Source: Myxococcota bacterium (lineage in GTDB: Bacteria > Myxococcota_A > SURF-8). Taken from it: a stretch of 64,000 nucleotides of DNA. Shown here one piece after another: positions 1-11,161 of the stretch. Positions within the stretch are counted from its first letter, which is position 1. Every line of letters starts with the position of its first letter. The stretch covers positions 2,308,179 to 2,372,178 of the forward strand of contig CAXXQS010000002.1 of assembly GCA_963674735.2 (NCBI GenBank). Direction: 5' to 3'. Under the pieces are notes generated by a model, which worked only from the letters and a program-made list of their open reading frames with translations, was not told the DNA's origin and did no database searches. The translations under genes were made by a program, and so were the position numbers.

Positions 1-1346
1 TGGGACTGAGTGGAATCCAGATTTTTAAGCTACTGCCGAAGACCAACTGCGGTGAGTGTGGCGTGCCCACTTGCCTGGCTTTCGGTATGAACCTGGCGGC
101 GGGTAAGGCGGAGTTGTCGCAATGCCCGTACGTCAGCGAAGAAGCCCAAGAAAAACTTGCCGCCGAGTCGGCGCCCCCCATTCGCACCGTCAATTTCGGG
201 TCCGGCGAAAACGTGGTGCCCGTTGGGGGTGAAACCGTGCTGTATCGGCACGAAAAAACCTTCGTCAACAAACCCGGTCTGGGCCTGCTCGTCTGCGACG
301 ACGAGCCGGAAGCCGACGTGAAGGAAAAGCTGCAGCGCTTCACCAATCTGCAGTACGAGCGCGTCGGATTGAATCTCCGGGCCGAAGTGGTCGCGCTTAA
401 ATCCAACACCGGCGACCCCGCCAAGTTCAAGGCGCTGGCGGAAGCGGTCAAAGCCACCGATGCCGCGCCGGTTCTCATCGGCGAGCCGGAAGTGCTCAAG
501 GCGGGCCTGGCGGTATTGAAAGACCGCAAGCCGGTTCTTTATGCGGCGACCTTCTCCAACGCGGCCGAAATGGGCCAACTGGCGCTCGAATCGGGCTGCC
601 CCCTGGCGGTGCGCGGCGAGAACCAGGACGACCTGGTCGAACTGACCGAGTATTTCACCGCCATGGGGATCAAGGATCTGGTCCTCGATCCGGGCAAGCG
701 GACGCTGCGCGATTCGCTGTACGACCATGTATCCATGCGCCGTCTGGCTATCAACAAGGTTTTCCGCCCCCTGGGCTTTCCGACCATCACCTTCCCCTGC
801 GAGATGACCAACGATCCCATGCTTGAAACCATGTATGCGGGCGTGTTCATCGCGAAGTACGCGGGCATCGTGATTTTGTCGGATCTCAAGGGCGAAAACC
901 TCTTCCCGCTGCTGTTGCAACGGCTCAATATCTACACCGATCCGCAGCGGCCCATGAAAACCACCGAGGGCATCTACGAGTTCAACGGCCCGACCGAGAA
1001 CTCGCCGGTGCTGGTCACGAGCAACTTCTCCTTGACATACTTCATCGTATCCGGTGAAATTGAGGCCAGTCGCGTTCCGGCCTACCTCATGGTGCTCGAC
1101 ACCGACGGTTTGTCGGTGCTGACTGCTTGGGCGGCCGGGAAGTTCGTCGGCGAAACCGTCGGCGCGCTGCTGAAGAAAACGAAGATCGAAGAGAAACTGG
1201 CCACGCGGAAACTGGTTCTTCCCGGCTATGTCGCCGTCATCTCGGGCGACACCGAGGAGGAAGTGGGCAAAAACTGGGAGGTCCAGATCGGGCCGCGCGA
1301 AAGCGCTCACATCCCGGCGTTTCTGCGTCAGAATTTCCCAGCCTGA
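1..1346 (+). CDS. acsC: Corrinoid iron-sulfur protein large subunit (ACDS gamma); start codon cut by 1 nt at the window edge
   Basis: The frame is open from position 3 as GLSGIQIFKLLPKTNCGECGVPTCLAF (4Fe-4S CxxCxxxxC motif). C-terminal NIYTDPQRP, TSNFSLTYF and GLSVLTAWAAGKF motifs are typical of AcsC. Confidence 0.95.
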   Translation, partial: GLSGIQIFKLLPKTNCGECGVPTCLAFGMNLAAGKAELSQCPYVSEEAQEKLAAESAPPIRTVNFGSGENVVPVGGETVLYRHEKTFVNKPGLGLLVCDDEPEADVKEKLQRFTNLQYERVGLNLRAEVVALKSNTGDPAKFKALAEAVKATDAAPVLIGEPEVLKAGLAVLKDRKPVLYAATFSNAAEMGQLALESGCPLAVRGENQDDLVELTEYFTAMGIKDLVLDPGKRTLRDSLYDHVSMRRLAINKVFRPLGFPTITFPCEMTNDPMLETMYAGVFIAKYAGIVILSDLKGENLFPLLLQRLNIYTDPQRPMKTTEGIYEFNGPTENSPVLVTSNFSLTYFIVSGEIEASRVPAYLMVLDTDGLSVLTAWAAGKFVGETVGALLKKTKIEEKLATRKLVLPGYVAVISGDTEEEVGKNWEVQIGPRESAHIPAFLRQNFPA

Positions 1347-1350
1347 GCGG

Positions 1351-1388
1351 ATGGGGGGGGGAATCTTCCCCCCGCCGCCTGGCGGCGC
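1351..1388. other. GC-rich stem-loops in the acsC-acsE spacer (possible mRNA stability element)
   Basis: gggggggaatcttcccccc and cgccgcctggcggcg inverted repeats, with no U-tract. Confidence 0.4.
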
Positions 1389-1423
1389 TTTCAACGGATC
1401 GACGAGTATAGGAGGGGATACGA

Positions 1424-2320
1424 ATGAGCATGAAAGTTATCGCCGAGAACGTCAATGTGATGTCGCGGTCGCTCGGACCGGCGATGAAAGAGCGCAATGC
1501 CGCGCCCATCATCGCCATGGCCAAGCAATGTGCGGAAAACGGCGCGGATTACCTCGACATCAACATCGGCCCGGCGCGTAAAAACGGCGACGAGCTGCTG
1601 GAATGGATCGTCAAGACCATTCAGTCCGAGGTGCAACTGCCGCTGTTTATCGACACCACCAACCAGAACATCCAGGAAACCGGCCTGAAATTCCATAACA
1701 ACGATTTCGGGCGTCCCATCATCAATTCCATCGATGCGGTTGCCGAGCGGATGGACTTTCTGATGCCGCTGGCCAAGAAATACGATGCCGGTTTCGTGGC
1801 GCTGATGTACGGCAAGGACGGTATTCCGCGTGATACCGACGAGCGTGGCATTCTGGCGGCCGACCTCATCGGCAAGTCGATGGAATACGGCTTCGAAGAT
1901 CCGGAAGCCCTTTTCTTCGATCCGATCGTGGTGCCGGTTTCCTCGCAGCAGAACCAGGTTCTCTCCTGCTGGGAAGCCACCGGCATGATCGACGACATGA
2001 TGCCGGGCGCCATGAGCACCTGCGGATTGTCCAATGTTTCGAACGGTTCCCCGGAGCATCTGCGCGCTGTCATCAATCAGACCTACCTGATGATGCTCAA
2101 GCGCCAGGGTATGCGTTCGGCCATCATGGACGGACTGGATACCGAGATCATTTCCATCGCCAAAGGCGAGCATCCCGAATGGGAAGCCGTGGTGGCCAAG
2201 GCCATGGACGGTGAAGCCATCGATATGGACGGCCTGTCCGAGCGTGAGCGCAACTACGTGAAGACAGTCAAGATCCTCAAGGGCGACGCGCTGTATTCCG
2301 ACTCCTGGTTGGAACTGTAG
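1424..2320 (+). CDS. acsE: Methyltetrahydrofolate:corrinoid Fe-S protein methyltransferase (pterin-binding barrel)
   Basis: IAENVN, GADYLDINIG, IDTTN, IINSI, FDP and GLSNVSNG motifs; RBS GGAGG; directly downstream of acsC. Confidence 0.9.
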   Translation: MSMKVIAENVNVMSRSLGPAMKERNAAPIIAMAKQCAENGADYLDINIGPARKNGDELLEWIVKTIQSEVQLPLFIDTTNQNIQETGLKFHNNDFGRPIINSIDAVAERMDFLMPLAKKYDAGFVALMYGKDGIPRDTDERGILAADLIGKSMEYGFEDPEALFFDPIVVPVSSQQNQVLSCWEATGMIDDMMPGAMSTCGLSNVSNGSPEHLRAVINQTYLMMLKRQGMRSAIMDGLDTEIISIAKGEHPEWEAVVAKAMDGEAIDMDGLSERERNYVKTVKILKGDALYSDSWLEL

Positions 2321-2327
2321 CGGTCCG

Positions 2328-3020
2328 ATGTCCCAAGAGTCTCCCACCCGCCCCAAGCTGGTGGAGCAGGAAAATCTCGACGTGGCGGCGCGGCTGGCGC
2401 AGGACATCCTGCGTCGCCTCGACCCCGCGGCGATCGCCCGGAAATGCGGTGCCGAGCTGTTCGATAAGGATGGCCGCCCGCATCTGCGCGTTTCCTACTT
2501 CACCGATCCCATCGTGATCGATCCCTCCGACGGCCGTATGGCGAAAGAATCCGGAGACGGCGTTCCACTTTGGGAACAAATCATCATCCTGCACTATCTA
2601 ACCCACGACGGCCGACCGTTGGCGGTGGAGGATCAACGTCCCATCGCCTTCAAGGAGATTCCCGATGGTCGCTTTTACGCCGAGCCTTTCCGGCGGCGTT
2701 CCGTTTTGCCGCTGATCGCCGTGTTTGGTGAAAAGCCCGCTCTGTTGCGGCAGGCGGCGCTGGCGCTCGCTGGGCGTGAAAGCACGGGAGCCGACGTGGC
2801 GGTGGTGGTCAACGCCTTTCCCGAAGCGCCGGTGACGGTGTTTTTATGGCAGGGCGACGATGAGTTTCCGCCCGAGGCCAATTTGCTCTTTCGCGCGGAC
2901 ATCCCCACGTTTTTCTCGGCGGAAGACGTGGCGGTGATTTCGGGTATTTTGGTCGGTCGCTTGAAAAAGCAAGCCCAGTTGATCGAGGCGGCGGCCGACA
3001 CAGATGAACACAAGTCCTAG
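2328..3020 (+). CDS. DUF3786 domain protein
   Basis: ILHYL, FKEIPDGRFY and LWQGDDEFPPEANLLF...SAED motifs; this family is common in acs clusters. Confidence 0.8.
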   Translation: MSQESPTRPKLVEQENLDVAARLAQDILRRLDPAAIARKCGAELFDKDGRPHLRVSYFTDPIVIDPSDGRMAKESGDGVPLWEQIIILHYLTHDGRPLAVEDQRPIAFKEIPDGRFYAEPFRRRSVLPLIAVFGEKPALLRQAALALAGRESTGADVAVVVNAFPEAPVTVFLWQGDDEFPPEANLLFRADIPTFFSAEDVAVISGILVGRLKKQAQLIEAAADTDEHKS

Positions 3021-3030
3021 GAGGTGAGTG

Positions 3031-3807
3031 GTGAAACTGAAGCTGGCATTTGGTGGCAAGGGCGGCGTGGGTAAAACGACCGTGACCGCGCTCATGGCCC
3101 GGTTGCTGGCGAAAAAGGGTAAACGCGTGATCGCCGTGGATGCCGATCCCGTGGCCAATCTGGCGGCGGCATTGGGGATTCCGGAAGACGAGCCCATCAC
3201 GCCCATCTCCCAACTCTCCGATCTGATCGCCGAGCGCACCGGTTCGCAAAAAGGCACCTACGGCGGTTTTTTCAAGCTTAATCCGCGTGTCGACGATATT
3301 CCCGAGCGTTTTTCGCTCGACCGCGACGGCGTGAAACTGTTGGTGATGGGCACGGTGGACAGCGGCGGTTCGGGCTGCATCTGCCCGGAAAGCGTGATGC
3401 TCAAAGCCCTCATGCAGCATCTGGTGCTTTACAACGACGACGTGGTGCTGATGGACATGGAGGCCGGGGTGGAGCATCTGGGACGCGCCACGACCGGATC
3501 GGTGGATGCACTGCTGACAGTGGTCAATCCCGGTGCGCGCAGCCGCGTGGCCGCCGAGCGCATCCGCAAGCTGGCCAGCGATCTCGGCATCAAACGCGTG
3601 CTCGTTATCGGTAACCGCGTGCGCGGTCCCGAGGACGAAGCGCTCATCCGCGAGGCGCTGTCGGAGTTTGAGATTCTGGGATTTCTACCCGAAATGGATG
3701 AACTCATCCAGGCCGACCGAAAAGGCGTACGGCCTTTCGAGAACCTCGACGAACTGCCGGAGTCGGTGCATGTGCTGGCCGAGCGTTTGATCAACCTTTC
3801 GGAGTAA
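3031..3807 (+). CDS. cooC: CO dehydrogenase/ACS nickel-insertion ATPase CooC/AcsF
   Basis: GKGGVGKT Walker A, DADP, GSGCICP (CxC Ni site) and DMEAGVEHLGR. Confidence 0.92.
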   Translation: MKLKLAFGGKGGVGKTTVTALMARLLAKKGKRVIAVDADPVANLAAALGIPEDEPITPISQLSDLIAERTGSQKGTYGGFFKLNPRVDDIPERFSLDRDGVKLLVMGTVDSGGSGCICPESVMLKALMQHLVLYNDDVVLMDMEAGVEHLGRATTGSVDALLTVVNPGARSRVAAERIRKLASDLGIKRVLVIGNRVRGPEDEALIREALSEFEILGFLPEMDELIQADRKGVRPFENLDELPESVHVLAERLINLSE

Positions 3808-3985
3808 ACAGGATGCGGTGACCCATCAAGTCGATTTCCTCGATGGTGCCTTCCACTTCCACGCTCTCACCGAGAATGCCGCGCAACAGGTATTTCCCCT
3901 CGCCCAGCGGTTTGACCTGGGCGACCGTTTCCATGATCTTTTCCTGCGTATCCGCCCTCACGATATAAGCCGTCGATTCGCACAT
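3791..3985 (-). CDS. cooT: CooT family nickel-binding protein
   Basis: N-terminus MCESTAY, C-terminus IEEIDLMGHRI, 64 aa; RBS AAAGGGG before the ATG at 3985. Confidence 0.85.
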   Translation of the reverse strand: MCESTAYIVRADTQEKIMETVAQVKPLGEGKYLLRGILGESVEVEGTIEEIDLMGHRILFTPKG

Positions 3986-4224
3986 GTCGTATCCCCTTTC
4001 GATCGAACAACCTGACATCAGCCTAAGCCTTTATGGCGCGGGTTTCAAGGAGAATTGCGGGGAGGAGGCTGGAATCTCTCTCCAGCCCGCGTTCGCGGAC
4101 GAAGGGGGCAAGCGGTCGGAAAAGGCGGAGCCCGTCGGGAGACGCGCTCCAACACGCGGGATGTTTTGAAAAAAAGAATTGGCCGGACTGAACGAAGGGC
4201 AGCCCGGCGCAAATCCTGCTTGGA

Positions 4225-4743
4225 CTATCCGAGTTTTTTAATGAGATCGTCGATTGCCGTCTGGGCGTCGATATCTTGGGTGTGCAGGATGATCTCCGCG
4301 TCCGAATGGGGCTCGAAGGGATCGTCGATGCCGGTGAAATTCGGGATTTCGCCGGCGCGCGCGCGTTTGTATAACCCCTTGGGGTCGCGCTCTTCACAGA
4401 CGGCCAGCGGCGTGTTCACCCAGGCGAAGTTGAGAGGAAGGCCGTGAAAGGATTCCCGGATCTTGTGGCGGATCGACTGGTAGGGCGTGATGGCCGCCAC
4501 GATGACCAGGCCCTTGTGGCGCACGATTTCGCGGGCCACGAAGGCGATACGCAAGAGGTTCATTTCGCGGTCTTCCTGCGAAAACCCCAACCCCTTGCTC
4601 AAATGGCGGCGCACGATATCGCCGTCCAGCATCGTTACCGTGCGACCGGCTTCCATCAGGCGTTGCTCTAGAATCTCCGCCAGGGTCGTTTTGCCTGCAC
4701 CCGAAAGACCGGTAAACCAAATACAACATCCGTTCTGCAGCAT
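4225..4743 (-). CDS. cysC: Adenylyl-sulfate (APS) kinase
   Basis: WFTGLSGAGKTT P-loop, LDGDIVR and RDPKGLY; RBS AGGAGG. Confidence 0.95.
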   Translation of the reverse strand: MLQNGCCIWFTGLSGAGKTTLAEILEQRLMEAGRTVTMLDGDIVRRHLSKGLGFSQEDREMNLLRIAFVAREIVRHKGLVIVAAITPYQSIRHKIRESFHGLPLNFAWVNTPLAVCEERDPKGLYKRARAGEIPNFTGIDDPFEPHSDAEIILHTQDIDAQTAIDDLIKKLG

Positions 4744-4774: not shown

Positions 4775-6205
4775 CTAGAGGCTCAACCGGGTGAGATCAT
4801 CGTAAACCGCCTGTGCTTCGCTCATCAAGGCCGGGGGCAGGTCGTCGACCGCGTGCGGTCTGGCGGGTGAAATTCCATCCGCCGCGCCGTCCGGCAAGGT
4901 CATCCCCAGGCGCTCGAACACGGCGCCGAGAACGCGCGCCGGGTCTTCCCCGAGGCGCTCGTAGGAGACGAACAGGCTGTCCGCCGGAGCCTGCGCGAGA
5001 ACGTAGCGATAGCTGCGAATCCACAGGGTTACCCAATAGGCCAGTTCGGCCGGGGATGTTTCGCCATCCTGCGGGGGATCGTCCGGGAAGCGGAAAGGCT
5101 TGTGGTTGCCGCCGAATTCGTGGTGCCCGAGCCAGGTCATGTAGGTCAACCCGAAGGCGTCTTCCTTATGCCGGATCAGAAAGCGTTCATGCTGCTGTTT
5201 GAGCGACAAGGCGTGCTGAATGGGATCGCGAAACGGAATGATGATCACGCTGCCGGGAAAGGCTTTTTTTAAACTGGGTAAGCGCAAGAGGTTGTTGTTG
5301 TTTTTCGACAGGTAACGCCGTGGGTCTCCATTCGTGGCGGCCGCCACCTGTGCGACGTAGTGCCGGAAGCGGTCGAGCGTTTCCGTGTCGGGCGAATGGG
5401 GAACGAGTGCATCCGGCTGCATGTAAGCCGGGCCGTCGAAAATGCGCCAGAAGACTTCTTCGAAGGCCTCGGGCGAATCGTAGTTCACCTTGATGCGGTC
5501 GCCGTGGGCGCGTTCCTCTTCAGCTTTGTGCTGCCGCAGGAATTTGGAGGCTTTGGACCACAGCTTGGGCATCAGGACGAAGGGCATGTCGCGGTAAGTG
5601 AGCGAGCGAAACGCGCCGGTGCCGTACAAGGTGCGCATCAAAATGGTGGTGCCCGCACGCGCCAGACCGCTGACGAAAACCGGTTGGGCGTCGGCCGCCG
5701 GGGGCTCGGCCGGGTGCAGCATACGCTCCATGTCGAAGGAGGTTTCCGCTACCGCGCGGGAACCGAGAGCCAGACGATGCAAAAAGCGCGACAGCGTCCC
5801 GTATTCTTCGATCGTCCTTTTTTTCGGGCTTCCGATCAAGGCCTGGCGCAAATAGTAATACACGACGGCGAAGGCGACGGAGAATCCGATCGGCCCCCAG
5901 TCGGACAGCAGCACGAGCACCGGACGTTCGAAGGGCCGCAGATAGTCCCACACCAGCGGTACGACAAGCGCCGCTCCCACGATTGCGGCCATCATCACGA
6001 TCAGTTTCAGCGTGGTGAGAAAGATCGTGCCGGAGGCCTTGAGCAGGCGTGCCTGCTTCTCATCGTCGGTGAGGGTCTTGGATGAAACGACGCCCGGAAC
6101 GGCGGCGGTGGTATCGAGCATGCGGCGCAAATGGTCGGTGAAAGGCAGGCGTAGCGCCACCTCGACCGCCACGAAAACCAGCAGAGCCGTCAGAACGTAA
6201 ATCAT
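4775..6205 (-). CDS. PAPS-dependent sulfotransferase with an N-terminal multi-TM anchor
   Basis: 5'-PSB loop SGLARAGTT, SKNNNN, 3'-PB motif FRDPIQHALS and VSYERL; three hydrophobic N-terminal segments. Confidence 0.85.
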   Translation of the reverse strand: MIYVLTALLVFVAVEVALRLPFTDHLRRMLDTTAAVPGVVSSKTLTDDEKQARLLKASGTIFLTTLKLIVMMAAIVGAALVVPLVWDYLRPFERPVLVLLSDWGPIGFSVAFAVVYYYLRQALIGSPKKRTIEEYGTLSRFLHRLALGSRAVAETSFDMERMLHPAEPPAADAQPVFVSGLARAGTTILMRTLYGTGAFRSLTYRDMPFVLMPKLWSKASKFLRQHKAEEERAHGDRIKVNYDSPEAFEEVFWRIFDGPAYMQPDALVPHSPDTETLDRFRHYVAQVAAATNGDPRRYLSKNNNNLLRLPSLKKAFPGSVIIIPFRDPIQHALSLKQQHERFLIRHKEDAFGLTYMTWLGHHEFGGNHKPFRFPDDPPQDGETSPAELAYWVTLWIRSYRYVLAQAPADSLFVSYERLGEDPARVLGAVFERLGMTLPDGAADGISPARPHAVDDLPPALMSEAQAVYDDLTRLSL

Positions 6206-6447
6206 TCCTTCGTCTCATCCTCTTTTTGGGACGCGGCGTTCGGGTCGGGCTTTGACCCGCGTTTGAACAGCTTTTTGATGGGGTACCAGAAGATGGCGAA
6301 GATGGCCAGCAACACCGAAAGCAAAACGCCCAGAATGGCGCCGATGGTGCCGAGACCCAGTCCGGGACCGATGTAGGCATGCGCCGGTGCGGCGAAAACC
6401 AACAGCAACCAGCAGATGGCCAGAAATGGCGGAATTAGTCGGAACAT
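6202..6447 (-). CDS. Small membrane protein (signal peptide AHA, then YIGPG and one TM helix)
   Basis: Overlaps both neighbours (ATGA with the sulfotransferase start); signal peptide, Gly-rich TM and basic tail. Confidence 0.75.
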   Translation of the reverse strand: MFRLIPPFLAICWLLLVFAAPAHAYIGPGLGLGTIGAILGVLLSVLLAIFAIFWYPIKKLFKRGSKPDPNAASQKEDETKE

Positions 6448-7763
6448 GATGGCATTTTCTCCAAGTCGTAAAAGTCCGGCGGCAGATAAACGGCCTCCGC
6501 CACGCTGAGTGTCAGGTTCTTTTCCTTGTCGTAAATATTGAGAAACTCGAAGACCACGCGCCCATCCGGGGTGACTTCGCGAACACTGCCGTAAAGCGGC
6601 ACCGAGAACAGAATGTTGCCGTTGGGCAAAACCTGATGCTTGCCCCGGTCGTAGGAATAAAAACGACTCGTTCCCTCGCCGGCCAGAATCTGGACGCTAT
6701 TCGTTTCAGGATCGATTTTGACGATGCGCGAGGCGCGACGGTGCATGTTGTTGTCGTAAACGGTGATGGTGCCGTCGGGTTGCCAATCGGCGTCGTGTTG
6801 ACGGCGCCACTGTCCGACCCGCCACCATTTGACTTTCAGGCTGGACGGATCGACGACGCACACCAGGTTGAGCGAGCGGAAATTCAAAAGCAGATCCCCG
6901 ACGGCGAATTGGGGAAAGGCTCCGGCCAGCGCGGCGGGCAAGGGCTCGACGTCGTTGGCGTGCCACATCTGGCCGCCCACCTCGGTGAGCCATGGAGAGC
7001 CCTCGATCCGGTCGTCCTGGCGAATACCCAGAATGTCGATTTCGGGGTTGGCGGTATAGATCGCTTCGATGGGCAACTCGCGCAACAGCTTGCCGGTCTG
7101 GATGTCGAATTGGCTGAATGCGCCGTTGCAGGTCGGGCCGACTGCCCAGATGCGGTCGCCTTCGTCGGGCGAGATGGCGTGGTTGTAGAGGCCCGGCGTG
7201 GCCCACAGGCGGCGGCCGCACCAGTCGAAACGCTGGATAGACGAGCCGAAATCGAAGGTGAAAATCAGCGAGCCGTCGGGTTGCGGCAGAATGCCGTGGG
7301 GATATTTCACCTGTTCGCTGCGCGTAACCTCGAAGGGCAGTCCGTTCTCATGCAGCACCCAGTGGTGCACGATGCGCCCCTCGGTATCGAGCAGAATCGC
7401 GCCGTGCAGACCGGCCTCGAAATCGAAAACGCCGTGGATCAGGCGGTAGCCCGGCTGGGCGCCGTCGCTCAGATACACCTGTGCCGCGGCGCGGCGCTTT
7501 TTGGCTCCGGGGATCGCTAACGTTTTGTAATTACGGGAGTTATCGACTTGCAGCAGGGAGTAATGGCGGTAGGGGTTGACGTCGGCGTCGTTGAGAACTT
7601 TTTCGACGAAGCTGGTGCCTTCTTCGGGATGACCGGCGGCGAAGGCCAGAAAATCCTGCACCACCGCATAGGGAAAAACCTCGTATTTCCCGATGGCGAA
7701 ACCCCAGGTCATGAAAAGTAAAACGGCCAGATAATAGACCGCGAATTTCTGCAATCGGTTCAT
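6435..7763 (-). CDS. Arylsulfotransferase (ASST-like, PAPS-independent), exported
   Basis: N-terminal signal anchor; His motifs YPHG, NHAI, WHAND and RQHDA; ITVYDNN; LPNGNIL beta-propeller repeats. Confidence 0.85.
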   Translation of the reverse strand: MNRLQKFAVYYLAVLLFMTWGFAIGKYEVFPYAVVQDFLAFAAGHPEEGTSFVEKVLNDADVNPYRHYSLLQVDNSRNYKTLAIPGAKKRRAAAQVYLSDGAQPGYRLIHGVFDFEAGLHGAILLDTEGRIVHHWVLHENGLPFEVTRSEQVKYPHGILPQPDGSLIFTFDFGSSIQRFDWCGRRLWATPGLYNHAISPDEGDRIWAVGPTCNGAFSQFDIQTGKLLRELPIEAIYTANPEIDILGIRQDDRIEGSPWLTEVGGQMWHANDVEPLPAALAGAFPQFAVGDLLLNFRSLNLVCVVDPSSLKVKWWRVGQWRRQHDADWQPDGTITVYDNNMHRRASRIVKIDPETNSVQILAGEGTSRFYSYDRGKHQVLPNGNILFSVPLYGSVREVTPDGRVVFEFLNIYDKEKNLTLSVAEAVYLPPDFYDLEKMPSCSD

Positions 7764-7957: not shown

Positions 7958-7989
7958 AAAAAGAATCCCCGACCCAAGCGGGCCGGGGA
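7958..7989 (-). terminator. Rho-independent terminator after ino1
   Basis: Minus strand tccccggccc-gctt-gggtcgggga followed by ttcttttt. Confidence 0.7.
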
Positions 7990-8015: not shown

Positions 8016-9347
8016 TTAGTCTTTATCCATCATGTCGTAGTATTCGAGGCCCAGGTGGGTGATGAGATCTTCCTTCATCAGCCAACGCATGGTGTTTTTC
8101 ATCTTGTGCTTCTGGATGAACAGATCGTGTTCCGGGTAAACGCTCTCGGCGGCCTGCGGGCTCTTCCAGTAGAAGCTCAGCCACTCCTGGATACCGTACA
8201 TATTGCAGCGATGGGCCAGGTCCATCAACAGCGCCAGATCCAACACGATGGGGGCGGCCAGGATGGAATCGCGGCAGAGGAAGTCGACCTTGATCTGCAT
8301 GGGATAGCCCATCCAGCCGAAGATGTCGATGTTATCCCAACCCTCTTTGTTATCGCCGCGCGGCGGGTAATAGTTGATGCGGACTTTGTGGTACAGATCG
8401 CTGTAAAGCTCGGGGTACATGCTCGGTTGCAAAATGGCGTCGAGCACGCCCAGCTTGCTGACTTCCTTGGTTTTGAAGCTCTCGGGATCGTCCAGCACTT
8501 CGCCGTCACGGTTACCCAGGATGTTGGTCGAGAACCAGCCCGAGACGCCCAGCATGCGCGCTTTGAAGCCCGGGGCGAGGATGGTTTTCATCAAGGTCTG
8601 GCCGGTTTTGAAATCCTTGCCGCCCACCGGAACGCGGTTTTCTCTGAAAAGCTCCATCAGGGCCGGGGTTTCCAGGCACAGGTTGGGCGCGCCGTTGCAG
8701 AAAGGCACGCGCTCTTTGATGGTGGCGTAGGCGTAAATCTGGCTCGGGGCGATTTCGGGATTGTCGTCTTTCAGACCTTGCTCGAACGCGGCCAGCGATT
8801 GATGCACCGCCGACGGCTCGCGGAAAACTTCGGTGGATGCGCACCAGATCACCACGGCGCGGCTGCAGCCGTTGTCTTTCATGAAGTTGCGGATATCCGC
8901 TCTGAGCGCCTGGGCCATTTCCCACTTGGTGCCCGTTTTCTTGTTGGGACCGTCGATCTTTTTCACGTAATCGGTCGAGAAAACGGCGGCCATGGGTTTG
9001 ATGGACTGCATTTCCTCTTTGATGCCTTGCAGATCTTCGCGCTTGAGCACGGAGGCGTTGAGCGCGGCTTCGTAGGCGGTATCGTTGAAGATATCCCAAC
9101 CGCCGAATACCAGCTGATCGAGATCGGCCAGGGGCAAAAAGTCTTTGATTTTGGGGCTGCGCTTATCGGAACGCTTGCCCAGGCGGATGGTGTTCAATTG
9201 CGTCAGCGAACCGATGGGCTTGGCCAGCCCTTTGCGGCTTGCGAGGACACCGGCCATGAAGGTTGTGGCCACGGCACCGAGACCGGGCGTCAGAATCGCC
9301 AGCTTGCCGTCCTTCGGTTTAATGTCATCTTTGCGTAGGATGGTCAT
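8016..9347 (-). CDS. ino1: myo-Inositol-1-phosphate synthase
   Basis: GLGAVATT, GGWD, WCASTE, GKDFKTGQT, NILGNRDG, GDNKEGWD and RDSILAAP motifs; RBS AGAGGTG. Confidence 0.95.
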   Translation of the reverse strand: MTILRKDDIKPKDGKLAILTPGLGAVATTFMAGVLASRKGLAKPIGSLTQLNTIRLGKRSDKRSPKIKDFLPLADLDQLVFGGWDIFNDTAYEAALNASVLKREDLQGIKEEMQSIKPMAAVFSTDYVKKIDGPNKKTGTKWEMAQALRADIRNFMKDNGCSRAVVIWCASTEVFREPSAVHQSLAAFEQGLKDDNPEIAPSQIYAYATIKERVPFCNGAPNLCLETPALMELFRENRVPVGGKDFKTGQTLMKTILAPGFKARMLGVSGWFSTNILGNRDGEVLDDPESFKTKEVSKLGVLDAILQPSMYPELYSDLYHKVRINYYPPRGDNKEGWDNIDIFGWMGYPMQIKVDFLCRDSILAAPIVLDLALLMDLAHRCNMYGIQEWLSFYWKSPQAAESVYPEHDLFIQKHKMKNTMRWLMKEDLITHLGLEYYDMMDKD

Positions 9348-9436
9348 AATCACCTCTCTTCATCTTCCGACTCACATCCAATAAACGGTGTCGGCCGATC
9401 AAGCCGTGCTCCGGTTTGGTCTGCCCGAATTGGGAC

Positions 9437-10135: not shown

Positions 10136-11161
10136 ATGGGGAATCGCGTTCGCTTCGATTTGACGGACCGCTCTTTTTACGAGGTGTGGTATCTCACCGT
10201 GGTGCATCGCCAAAGCGGCCAGGCCTTCTGGATCCGTTCGACGCTGTTGCAGGGTGTGTCCGATAACGGTCAACGGCGCGGCGGTTTGTGGTGCGCCCGA
10301 TTCGACCCGCGCGACGCCTCCCGCAATCTGTTGGTGCAACGCGCCTATCCCGAATCGCAGGTGCGGGTGGCTCCGAATGAAACCCCGGTGGCGGTGGGCG
10401 ATTCACTCTTCGATGACACGCGCTGGCAGGCCGCTTTCGTGCGTGACGGCTGGGCGGTGGATTGGGATCTGCACTGGGAGCCGCAGGAGGACACGGTGTG
10501 GATGATCCCCGATCTTGTCCGCCGCTCGCATATCCCCAAGGCCGACAGCAACGTGCCCCACATCGATATCAAACTCACCGGCACGCTCACCATCAACGGC
10601 GAAACGGTTACGTTCGACGGCGACCCGGCCGGGCAGGCGCATCATTGGGGGTACCACTACGCCAAGGAATGGATCTGGGGGCATTGCAACGTGTTCGACC
10701 ATGCCGAGGATTCGTGGCTGGAATTTCTTTCGGCCAAAATTTACGATGCGGGAAGCTGGACCTATCCCTTCACGATGCTGCAAGTGAAAACTCCCGAGGG
10801 GCGCTTCGGGGTGAACACGCCGTGGGCGCTGTTGCGTTCGCGCGCCACTTACGAAAACGGGAGTTGGCGGGTGACCGCGCAGGATGGAGAGCGACGCATC
10901 GAGCTGCACATGGCGGCCCCGCCGGAGCGCTTCGTTTGCGCGCCCTACGAATCGCCGCATCACGAGGCTTACTGGTGCCACAACAGCTGTCTGGCGGATC
11001 TGCGCTGCCGCGTGTTGAAACGCGAGGGGACGGTCTGGCGGCAGGAACGCGAATTGATCAGCACCGGCCGCGCCGCCGCCGAGTTCTGCACCACCCAGGA
11101 TACCACCCCGGCCGACTTCGTCTTCCGCACGCTGGCTCCGCCCGTGTTCGTGGGGGAGTAG
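10136..11161 (+). CDS. Tocopherol cyclase/AttH-like beta-barrel protein
   Basis: FYEVWYL, GTLTING and GQAHHWG...EWIWGHCN motifs. Confidence 0.55.
   Translation: MGNRVRFDLTDRSFYEVWYLTVVHRQSGQAFWIRSTLLQGVSDNGQRRGGLWCARFDPRDASRNLLVQRAYPESQVRVAPNETPVAVGDSLFDDTRWQAAFVRDGWAVDWDLHWEPQEDTVWMIPDLVRRSHIPKADSNVPHIDIKLTGTLTINGETVTFDGDPAGQAHHWGYHYAKEWIWGHCNVFDHAEDSWLEFLSAKIYDAGSWTYPFTMLQVKTPEGRFGVNTPWALLRSRATYENGSWRVTAQDGERRIELHMAAPPERFVCAPYESPHHEAYWCHNSCLADLRCRVLKREGTVWRQERELISTGRAAAEFCTTQDTTPADFVFRTLAPPVFVGE

Follow-up and report, generated by a model that had tools for sequence, protein, structure and literature searches.

A tyrosine-headed membrane micro-protein as a candidate docking subunit of a two-sided bacterial sulfation cassette

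The 64,000-nucleotide stretch of Myxococcota bacterium DNA analysed here (in full, the window; GTDB lineage Bacteria, Myxococcota_A, SURF-8; GenBank assembly GCA_963674735.2, contig CAXXQS010000002.1, positions 2,308,179 to 2,372,178) carries a short gene of 81 codons plus stop (6202..6447, minus strand, as are all features of the cassette described below; from a six-frame list of open reading frames, ORFs) that lies between two genes of sulfotransferase families. Judged from sequence, this ORF is a real, widely conserved gene for a small membrane protein, and we favour, tentatively and at a little under even confidence, the view that its product may serve as a small membrane docking subunit of a four-part, membrane-spanning sulfation module. 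In such a module a small-residue stripe would let the helix of the micro-protein pack against the outer enzyme's anchor and against the membrane partner of the sulfotransferase with its helices, while the two invariant ends of the micro-protein would dock the periplasmic propeller outside and the cytoplasmic sulfotransferase complex inside. Docking of this kind would couple an inner step dependent on 3'-phosphoadenosine 5'-phosphosulfate (PAPS) to a PAPS-independent outer transfer of the aryl-sulfate type, so that the cassette would be a membrane-spanning version of the two-step sulfation that runs from Cpz8 to Cpz4. The outer Tyr/Gly-rich cap may help to hold a sulfated intermediate or present it to the propeller, and the micro-protein itself would not be consumed.

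We favour docking because of five lines of evidence: the conserved synteny with both enzymes, in genes that overlap or nearly abut; natural fusions of the micro-protein to either partner; the equal invariance of both ends of its helix, together with the continuous small-residue stripe between them; the reuse of the module on AlkP-type enzymes in other sulfation operons; and the identities of the partners (Cpz4-like upstream, a PAPS-type sulfotransferase fold downstream and an adjacent adenosine 5'-phosphosulfate (APS) kinase), read together with the Cpz8/Cpz4 precedent.

PAPS is made inside the cell and enzymes of the aryl sulfotransferase (ASST) type work outside the cytoplasmic membrane. The unit described here holds, in coupled genes, an enzyme that makes PAPS, one that uses it, an ASST-type enzyme that faces outward and two very small membrane proteins, and hence offers a route to asking how activated sulfate reaches a periplasmic enzyme or the bacterial outer surface; according to a 2026 review, it is not known for most PAPS-independent aryl sulfotransferases which donors and acceptors they use in nature or what their physiological roles are (PMC13426309). 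Small membrane subunits, two-step sulfation and Tyr relays are each known, and it is the membrane-spanning arrangement with this micro-protein that is new: we found no literature treating the two Pfam families as a bacterial cassette, and the motif string of the micro-protein appeared in the literature only in unrelated contexts, with nothing on this cassette.

The micro-protein family and its predicted topology

The product begins with a short positive N-terminus, a hydrophobic core and P-A-H-A, continues with Y25-I-G-P-G-L-G-L-G, about 20 hydrophobic residues and W54-Y55-P56-I-K-K, and ends in a K/R-rich tail that turns acidic, an order of parts that the original prediction had described correctly. 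We assign residues 1–24 (6376..6447; n-region M-F-R) to a Sec-type leader with predicted cleavage after A24, residues 25–33 (6349..6375, the Tyr25 codon TAC being 6373-6375) to a Y-x-G-P-G-x-G-x-G motif at the predicted periplasmic face, residues 34–53 (6289..6348) to the membrane helix, and residues 54–81 (6205..6288) to a W-Y-P-x-K-[RK] motif with its tail, basic and then acidic, at the predicted cytoplasmic face.

Relatives are numerous and unnamed. A word-indexed search returned 26 of them (61–114 residues) at E<=1e-10 or better, and an exhaustive search of 1.84 billion representatives returned 2006 clusters at E<=1e-3, 221 of these at E<=1e-10. No Pfam or NCBIfam model matches the micro-protein, the best Pfam scores lying far under the gathering cut-offs (YnaM, PF23676, 16.7 bits vs 27; YbgT, PF08173, 15.0 vs 26.2), and in the ESM Atlas its relatives occur only in unnamed 'hypothetical protein' clusters. 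The family is thus unannotated, and its members may be taken as a portable membrane module that flags sulfation operons.

For the conservation counts 172 proteins were retrieved. One was dropped as a relative and excluded from every count: an 847-residue protein (P0028) of about 13 near-identical 60-residue repeats, whose E value of 2e-18 arises through a G-L-G-M-G-T-V-G stretch only, matching just the G-L-G-x-G-T-x-G part. Of the remaining 171 proteins, 170 served for counts at positions fixed from the Tyr and 165 for counts over the leader. Tyr25 (Tyr+1 of the predicted mature protein) is invariant, in all 171 members and in the 170 of the position-fixed set, so that the tyrosine singled out by the original prediction is indeed conserved. 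It is matched, however, by G27, P28, P56 and K58 (each 170/170) and closely followed by G29 and G31 (168/170 each) and G33 (167/170). At the inner end Y55 is kept in 164 of 170 members (F in four, M and H in one each) and position 54 is W in 147 and Y in 23. Between the two ends runs a conserved small-residue stripe at positions 33, 36, 40, 44, 48 and 51 (fraction of G/A/S 1.00, 0.95, 1.00, 0.96, 0.95 and 0.99, respectively). The invariance at both ends and the packing stripe are what one would expect of a structural subunit, which had been put forward at the outset as the alternative to a sulfate shuttle.

The family statistics also bear on processing. Residue -1 to the Tyr is A in 166 and G in 4 of 170 members, and residue -3 is A in 142, V in 13, T in 5 and S in 5; a Pro lies within -7..-1 in 127 of 165 leaders, and the n-region is net positive in 123. 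The leader is otherwise unconserved and of variable length, with a median of 23 residues ahead of the Tyr and a median hydrophobic region of 17 (only this median is meaningful, the measure being distorted where residue -2 is charged). An n-region of positive charge ahead of a hydrophobic core, with a helix breaker in the c-region and small residues at both -3 and -1, marks a Sec/signal peptidase I substrate, and on account of these features we predict cleavage after A-H-A. Past the W-Y-P-x-K-[RK] motif the next 15 residues hold a median of six K/R. We infer from this that a Sec signal peptide is cut off to leave a constrained new N-terminus ahead of a helix suited to tight packing, with the mature protein probably oriented N-out/C-in. 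According to the positive-inside rule, one Tyr would then lie at each face of the membrane, as originally proposed, although the inner one, Tyr55, does not share the invariance of the outer one.

Partners, synteny and fusions

The claimed translational coupling between two sulfotransferase-family genes is borne out. The micro-protein gene starts at an ATG (6447-6445) within the 3' end of the upstream gene (6435..7763), whose stop is at 6437-6435, giving a 13-nucleotide overlap; its GGAG ribosome-binding site (6459..6462) lies in that same 3' end, 11 nucleotides before the ATG. At its other end its stop and the start of the downstream gene share an ATGA (6205-6202).

The upstream gene encodes a 442-residue Arylsulfotran_2 protein (PF14269, 1.5e-24; PF05935 reaches only E 0.011, which places it in the PF14269 branch). 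Its AlphaFold2 model (predicted local distance difference test score, pLDDT, 86.4) has an N-terminal helix (3–27) that serves as a putative membrane anchor, and a six-bladed propeller that is predicted to be periplasmic. Foldseek with this model places Cpz4 of caprazamycin biosynthesis on top (9kf4 and 9kf6, E ~7e-15), followed by E. coli ASST, and a profile of 28 orthologues matches Cpz4 at E 1.8e-13. The invariant H268-x-N270 and Q322-H323-D324 align with the H-x-N and Q-H-D of Cpz4; invariant within the family are H195, H268, N270, Q322, H323, C182 and C440, the two Cys being as expected for an exported disulfide-bearing protein. A complex prediction of this protein with the micro-protein, run without controls, scored 0.02 against a mark of 0.32 and counts neither for nor against a contact. 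Elsewhere in the source genome, outside the window, two close paralogues of the propeller gene lie at C2:1521173-1522492 and C1:1221171-1222478.

The downstream gene encodes a 476-residue Sulfotransfer_3 protein (PF13469, 3.6e-16), modelled at pLDDT 90.1 with helices at 2–19, 22–41, 47–89 and 103–124 ahead of the sulfotransferase domain. Its N-terminal membrane domain (about residues 1–125; 5831..6205) would comprise three helices and a cytoplasmic helical hairpin, and its PAPS-type sulfotransferase domain (4775..5830) carries P-loop-like A-R-A-G-T-T and R-D-P motifs. In most loci these two parts are separate overlapping genes, for a three-helix membrane protein of about 125 residues (33 clean examples) and a soluble sulfotransferase of about 350 residues (41 examples); they are fused, as in the window, in 15 loci. 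In structure comparisons the closest relatives of known substrate are the tyrosylprotein sulfotransferases, which tie with mycobacterial enzymes listed without a named substrate; heparan sulfotransferases score about 12 and Cpz8 10.1, and Foldseek is concordant. The ~125-residue protein, for which no family was found, has a near-invariant Glu in helix 1 (E15, >=90%) and an S-D-H-W-K-E-K loop motif that has diverged in the window protein. The unit closes with a gene for the PAPS-making APS kinase (4225..4743; PF01583, 4.1e-56; TIGR00455, 2e-57), 31 nucleotides past the sulfotransferase gene. Upstream, a strong terminator-like hairpin (7966..7989; 10 pairs, 8 of them G-C, with a T-rich tail) stands between the cassette and an inositol-1-phosphate synthase gene (8016-9353, minus strand), which suggests that the cassette is a transcription unit of its own.

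When one genome for each of 185,579 species was scanned, 187 relatives emerged, from which 79 loci were kept. They span Alpha- and Gammaproteobacteria, Desulfobacterota, Zetaproteobacteria, Bacteroidota, Ignavibacteria, Planctomycetota, Nitrospinota and Spirochaetes, largely of marine or saline origin; cultured carriers of the cassette family include Mariprofundus ferrooxydans PV-1, Desulfatibacillum alkenivorans DSM 16219, Ruegeria sp. and Marinibactrum halimedae. By tblastn with the window neighbours, the sulfotransferase lies downstream in 75 of the 79 loci, the ASST-like gene upstream in 71 and an APS kinase nearby in six; the order is nearly always ASST-like gene, micro-protein gene, sulfotransferase gene, and in 29 checked loci the genes overlap or almost abut. 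The linkage to sulfate enzymes that the original prediction would lead one to expect is therefore present. In an all-against-all clustering of 786 neighbouring ORFs, the sulfotransferase and the ASST-like protein were the sole conserved clusters, no other neighbour being common to more than six of the 79 loci, apart from over-called ORFs that contain the micro-protein gene itself (16 loci); the cassette would accordingly be self-contained and mobile between contexts. Multiples occur as well. One locus (L011:2795-9289) has a tandem of ASST-like, micro, ASST-like, micro and ASST-like genes before a single sulfotransferase gene, its two micro-proteins differing chiefly in leader and tail, and another (L037) has four ASST-like genes and one micro-protein gene.

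Replacements were seen too. A class I methyltransferase gene occupies the usual place of the sulfotransferase, right after the micro-protein gene, at L014:1065-1772 and L067:980-1687, and in a Flavobacteriales locus a CotH kinase-like protein (L031:4622-5881; PF08757, 2.3e-15) stands directly upstream of the micro-protein gene in place of the ASST-like one.

A search with the family profile found 27 longer proteins at E<=1e-3, in which the micro-protein module is joined to larger partners. Three separate clusters (P0127, P0146 and P0173) consist of the module, an extra helix and an ASST-like domain; P0174 has the module, a helix and a GDSL/SGNH hydrolase; P0175 joins the module to the membrane domain of the sulfotransferase; and P0176 is a truncated WD40-like chimera. 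Near P0173 and P0175 the MAFFT block alignments misplace the partners' own membrane helices onto the micro-protein part. The extra helix in the ASST and SGNH fusions would place the enzyme outside. The other 21 are AlkP-superfamily proteins (about 710 residues, PF01663) headed by the module: a leader with A-x-A, Y-I-G-P-G-A-G, a helix, W-P-[IV]-R and a run of Arg/Lys, identically spaced, with the catalytic domain directly after, so that by the positive-inside rule this domain is predicted to be cytoplasmic.

For the AlkP-type genes, a scan of metagenomes gave at least 574 that bear the module, and 80 loci were kept (L110-L189), with the Tyr retained in all 80 motif occurrences. The operon runs from the module-bearing AlkP through a lipoprotein-type AlkP paralogue to a 275-residue membrane protein (33 loci; e.g. 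L149:6953-12395). Of 25 members of the latter family, 4 weakly match EMC3/TMCO1-like proteins (best E 0.0013, under the Pfam cut-off). Neighbours in the 80 loci include a 211-residue sulfotransferase (23 loci), sulfatases of PF00884 (21), APS kinase (18, by tblastn) and ATP sulfurylase (16). From its gene content this operon appears to be an uncharacterised sulfation system in its own right. On gene content, too, the module keeps company with sulfation genes in two architectures unrelated to each other, which extends the linkage beyond the cassette and suggests a portable membrane anchor reused in sulfation operons.

Docking weighed against other roles

Several observations weigh against docking as the role of the micro-protein. 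The A-x-A-Tyr junction is kept even in fusions to enzymes that have their own anchors, which may mean that the Tyr has to be free at the N-terminus for reasons other than helix packing, and the helices of the P0175 fusion come to an odd number should each of the partner's three cross the membrane. The two close ASST-like paralogues elsewhere in the source genome (E 3.4e-145 and 3.4e-138 against the family profile) stand alone, the 6 kb around each being free of the micro-protein motif and the nearest 6-7 kb of a sulfotransferase, and the motif is single-copy in this genome; and among 30 ASST-like loci sampled from 301 genomes of the phylum, only three have the motif within 1.5 kb. The ASST-like family thus appears to have no general need of the micro-protein. 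Neither partner is constant, moreover: the two Halieaceae loci with ASST-like, micro-protein and methyltransferase genes have no sulfotransferase within 4-6 kb, and in four loci the micro-protein and sulfotransferase genes occur without an ASST-like hit. One set of micro-protein and sulfotransferase serving several propellers would fit a shared donor-generating hub, an arrangement compatible with docking, with translocation of an intermediate and with a carrier function alike.

The carrier function is the idea with which the original prediction set out. In its fuller form, a tyrosylprotein sulfotransferase-like enzyme, held at the membrane by the three-helix partner, would sulfate Tyr+1 of the pre-protein in the cytoplasm; after translocation and cleavage behind A-x-A, the propeller would pass the sulfuryl group from the sulfotyrosine to a periplasmic acceptor. 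The idea came through both the invariance of Tyr+1 (which extends to every AlkP-type occurrence) and the linkage to sulfate enzymes, and its chemistry fits: ASSTs use aryl sulfates and accept tyrosine peptides, as had been stated and as the review relates (PMC13426309), the inner enzyme may itself be tyrosylprotein sulfotransferase-like, and a two-step route from PAPS to carrier to acceptor is established for Cpz8/Cpz4 (PMC6731281). Moreover, no gene for carrier synthesis, such as a type III polyketide synthase, is conserved in the cassette, and one micro-protein gene against three ASST-like paralogues in the source genome is what a shared donor would lead one to expect. Precedents for the tyrosine may be found in DltX, whose Tyr relays D-alanyl groups (PMC12148441), in agreement with the original prediction, and in RaxX, a precursor that is tyrosine-sulfated in the raxX-raxSTAB cluster (PMC6637879).

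Nevertheless, topology and the remaining data weaken a carrier to the point where we think it improbable. Since Tyr25 would be periplasmic, with PAPS and the sulfotransferase domain in the cytoplasm, loading could occur only before export and once per molecule; an exported Tyr could not be recharged from PAPS, and each 81-residue protein would deliver a single sulfate. In the Dlt, Pat and OatA systems a polytopic MBOAT (membrane-bound O-acyltransferase) or AT3 (acyltransferase 3) enzyme loads the outer Tyr through the membrane; no such loader is conserved here, which again confines sulfation of the Tyr to the time before export. It would also be superfluous for a small exported donor to recharge the Tyr outside, since the propeller could draw on that donor itself. 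A donor that works only once is implausible, too, in fusions of the module to complete enzymes (ASST-like, SGNH and hundreds of AlkP-type), and the overlap and coupling of the genes suggest that the three products are made in comparable amounts, with no large excess of a consumable one. Known tyrosine-sulfation sites are acidic, and the Ala and Ile/Gly that flank the Tyr here are unlike them. Furthermore, G27, P28, P56 and K58 equal the Tyr in invariance. Were a carrier function correct after all, the Y-x-G-P-G module would be without precedent as a sulfuryl carrier borne by a protein, working with the sulfotransferase and a three-helix protein of insertase-like layout; the tethered sulfotyrosine would be the natural donor of the propeller and the AlkP-type operons a second such system, a picture that we likewise regard as doubtful.

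Another possibility concerns the path across the membrane: oligomers of the micro-protein, together with the ~125-residue protein, may form a small flippase or conduit that moves a sulfated lipid or small phenolic intermediate from the sulfotransferase at the inner leaflet to the propeller. The two-step logic requires that something cross the membrane, and the cassette conserves two small membrane proteins without an enzymatic domain, of which the one has a Gly-rich loop at the N-terminus of its helix and a continuous small-residue face and the other the conserved acidic E15 in helix 1; additionally, the AlkP-type operons with the same module carry a membrane protein of their own, the 275-residue protein with its sub-threshold EMC3/TMCO1-like matches. 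On the other hand, no transporter family was detected in either small protein, the two membrane-protein families are not detectably related (hhalign probability 0.1), and four or five helices in all would be small for a transporter unless it were oligomeric. We therefore consider a conduit unlikely.

Less probable still is that the micro-protein is the end product, an anchored peptide whose permanent N-terminal sulfotyrosine, made by the sulfotransferase before export or by the propeller outside, would serve as a mark for surface or partner recognition. It is true that the invariant Tyr would be exposed at the new N-terminus, that the cassette travels alone with no conserved gene pointing to another acceptor and that tyrosine sulfation modulates extracellular protein contacts, according to PMC12148441. 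Two sulfotransferases and a PAPS supply would be, however, a heavy apparatus for one residue, several ASST-like paralogues per micro-protein gene fit several acceptors better, and no receptor or export partner is conserved in the 79 loci. Finally, a chance ORF between two enzymes, which its short length and lack of a curated family match might suggest, can be dismissed on account of its conservation across phyla, its invariant motifs at fixed spacing, its own GGAG site and its occurrence as a fused domain.

Known systems and the surrounding DNA

The system that the micro-protein most recalls in outline is DltX. Both are single-pass microproteins with an invariant Tyr at the extracytoplasmic end, both are encoded between a donor-side enzyme and an outward-facing transferase, and in both the motif stands alone or fused to a partner, the DltX motif occurring on PatA-type MBOATs (PMC12148441) and the present one on the SGNH hydrolase of P0174. 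They differ in that the present motif is an N-terminal Y-x-G-P-G-x-G-x-G behind a cleavable leader, with a variable charged C-terminus, whereas DltX is described as having a C-terminal F-x-Y-x-x-F (PMC12148441). Further, the 79 loci have no conserved MBOAT/AT3 tunnel enzyme or SGNH partner (Acyl_transf_3 genes lie near two loci, and there is the one SGNH fusion), the group in play would be sulfuryl and not acyl, and the two proteins share no sequence similarity.

In terms of enzymes the closest parallel is the two-step sulfation by Cpz8, Cpz6 and Cpz4 in caprazamycin biosynthesis (PMC6731281; PDB 9kf4, 9kf6 and 9kf2). The cassette, too, has a PAPS-independent ASST-type transferase and, in the same cluster, a PAPS-dependent sulfotransferase, with the APS kinase adjacent, but it lacks a counterpart of Cpz6, the type III polyketide synthase that makes the carrier, and no third enzyme cluster recurs in more than six of the 79 loci. 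RaxX/RaxST of Xanthomonas offers a PAPS-type sulfotransferase encoded beside a short, processed, exported precursor with a conserved Tyr (PMC6637879); here, in contrast, the cluster has no conserved ABC exporter of the peptidase type, the leader follows the Sec pattern, the product is predicted to stay in the membrane and an ASST-like enzyme is present. The ASST of E. coli CFT073 with DsbL/DsbI (PDB 3elq among others; PMC13426309) resembles the outer half of the cassette in its periplasmic propeller with one conserved Cys pair (here C182 and C440), in the small accessory membrane or periplasmic proteins of its operon and in a natural donor that the same review gives as unknown. It differs in that the accessory genes here do not encode Dsb proteins, the propeller carries a membrane anchor and is of the PF14269 branch, and the operon includes a PAPS-dependent enzyme and an APS kinase.

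Two neighbours in the window came into question as sources of an acceptor or carrier and were set aside. The inositol-1-phosphate synthase is separated from the cassette by the hairpin and is no conserved neighbour in the 79 loci; nor is the tocopherol-cyclase-like protein, a conceivable maker of a phenolic carrier, which is encoded 2.4 kb from the cassette (10136-11161, plus strand; PF14249, 1.9e-08). On the other side, positions 1-4018 of the window hold a Wood-Ljungdahl accessory set consisting of CdhD (1.7e-96), a pterin-binding methyltransferase, a DUF3786 protein, a CooC-like ATPase and CooT, which stops about 200 nucleotides from the APS kinase gene of the cassette and, except for CooT, lies on the opposite strand.

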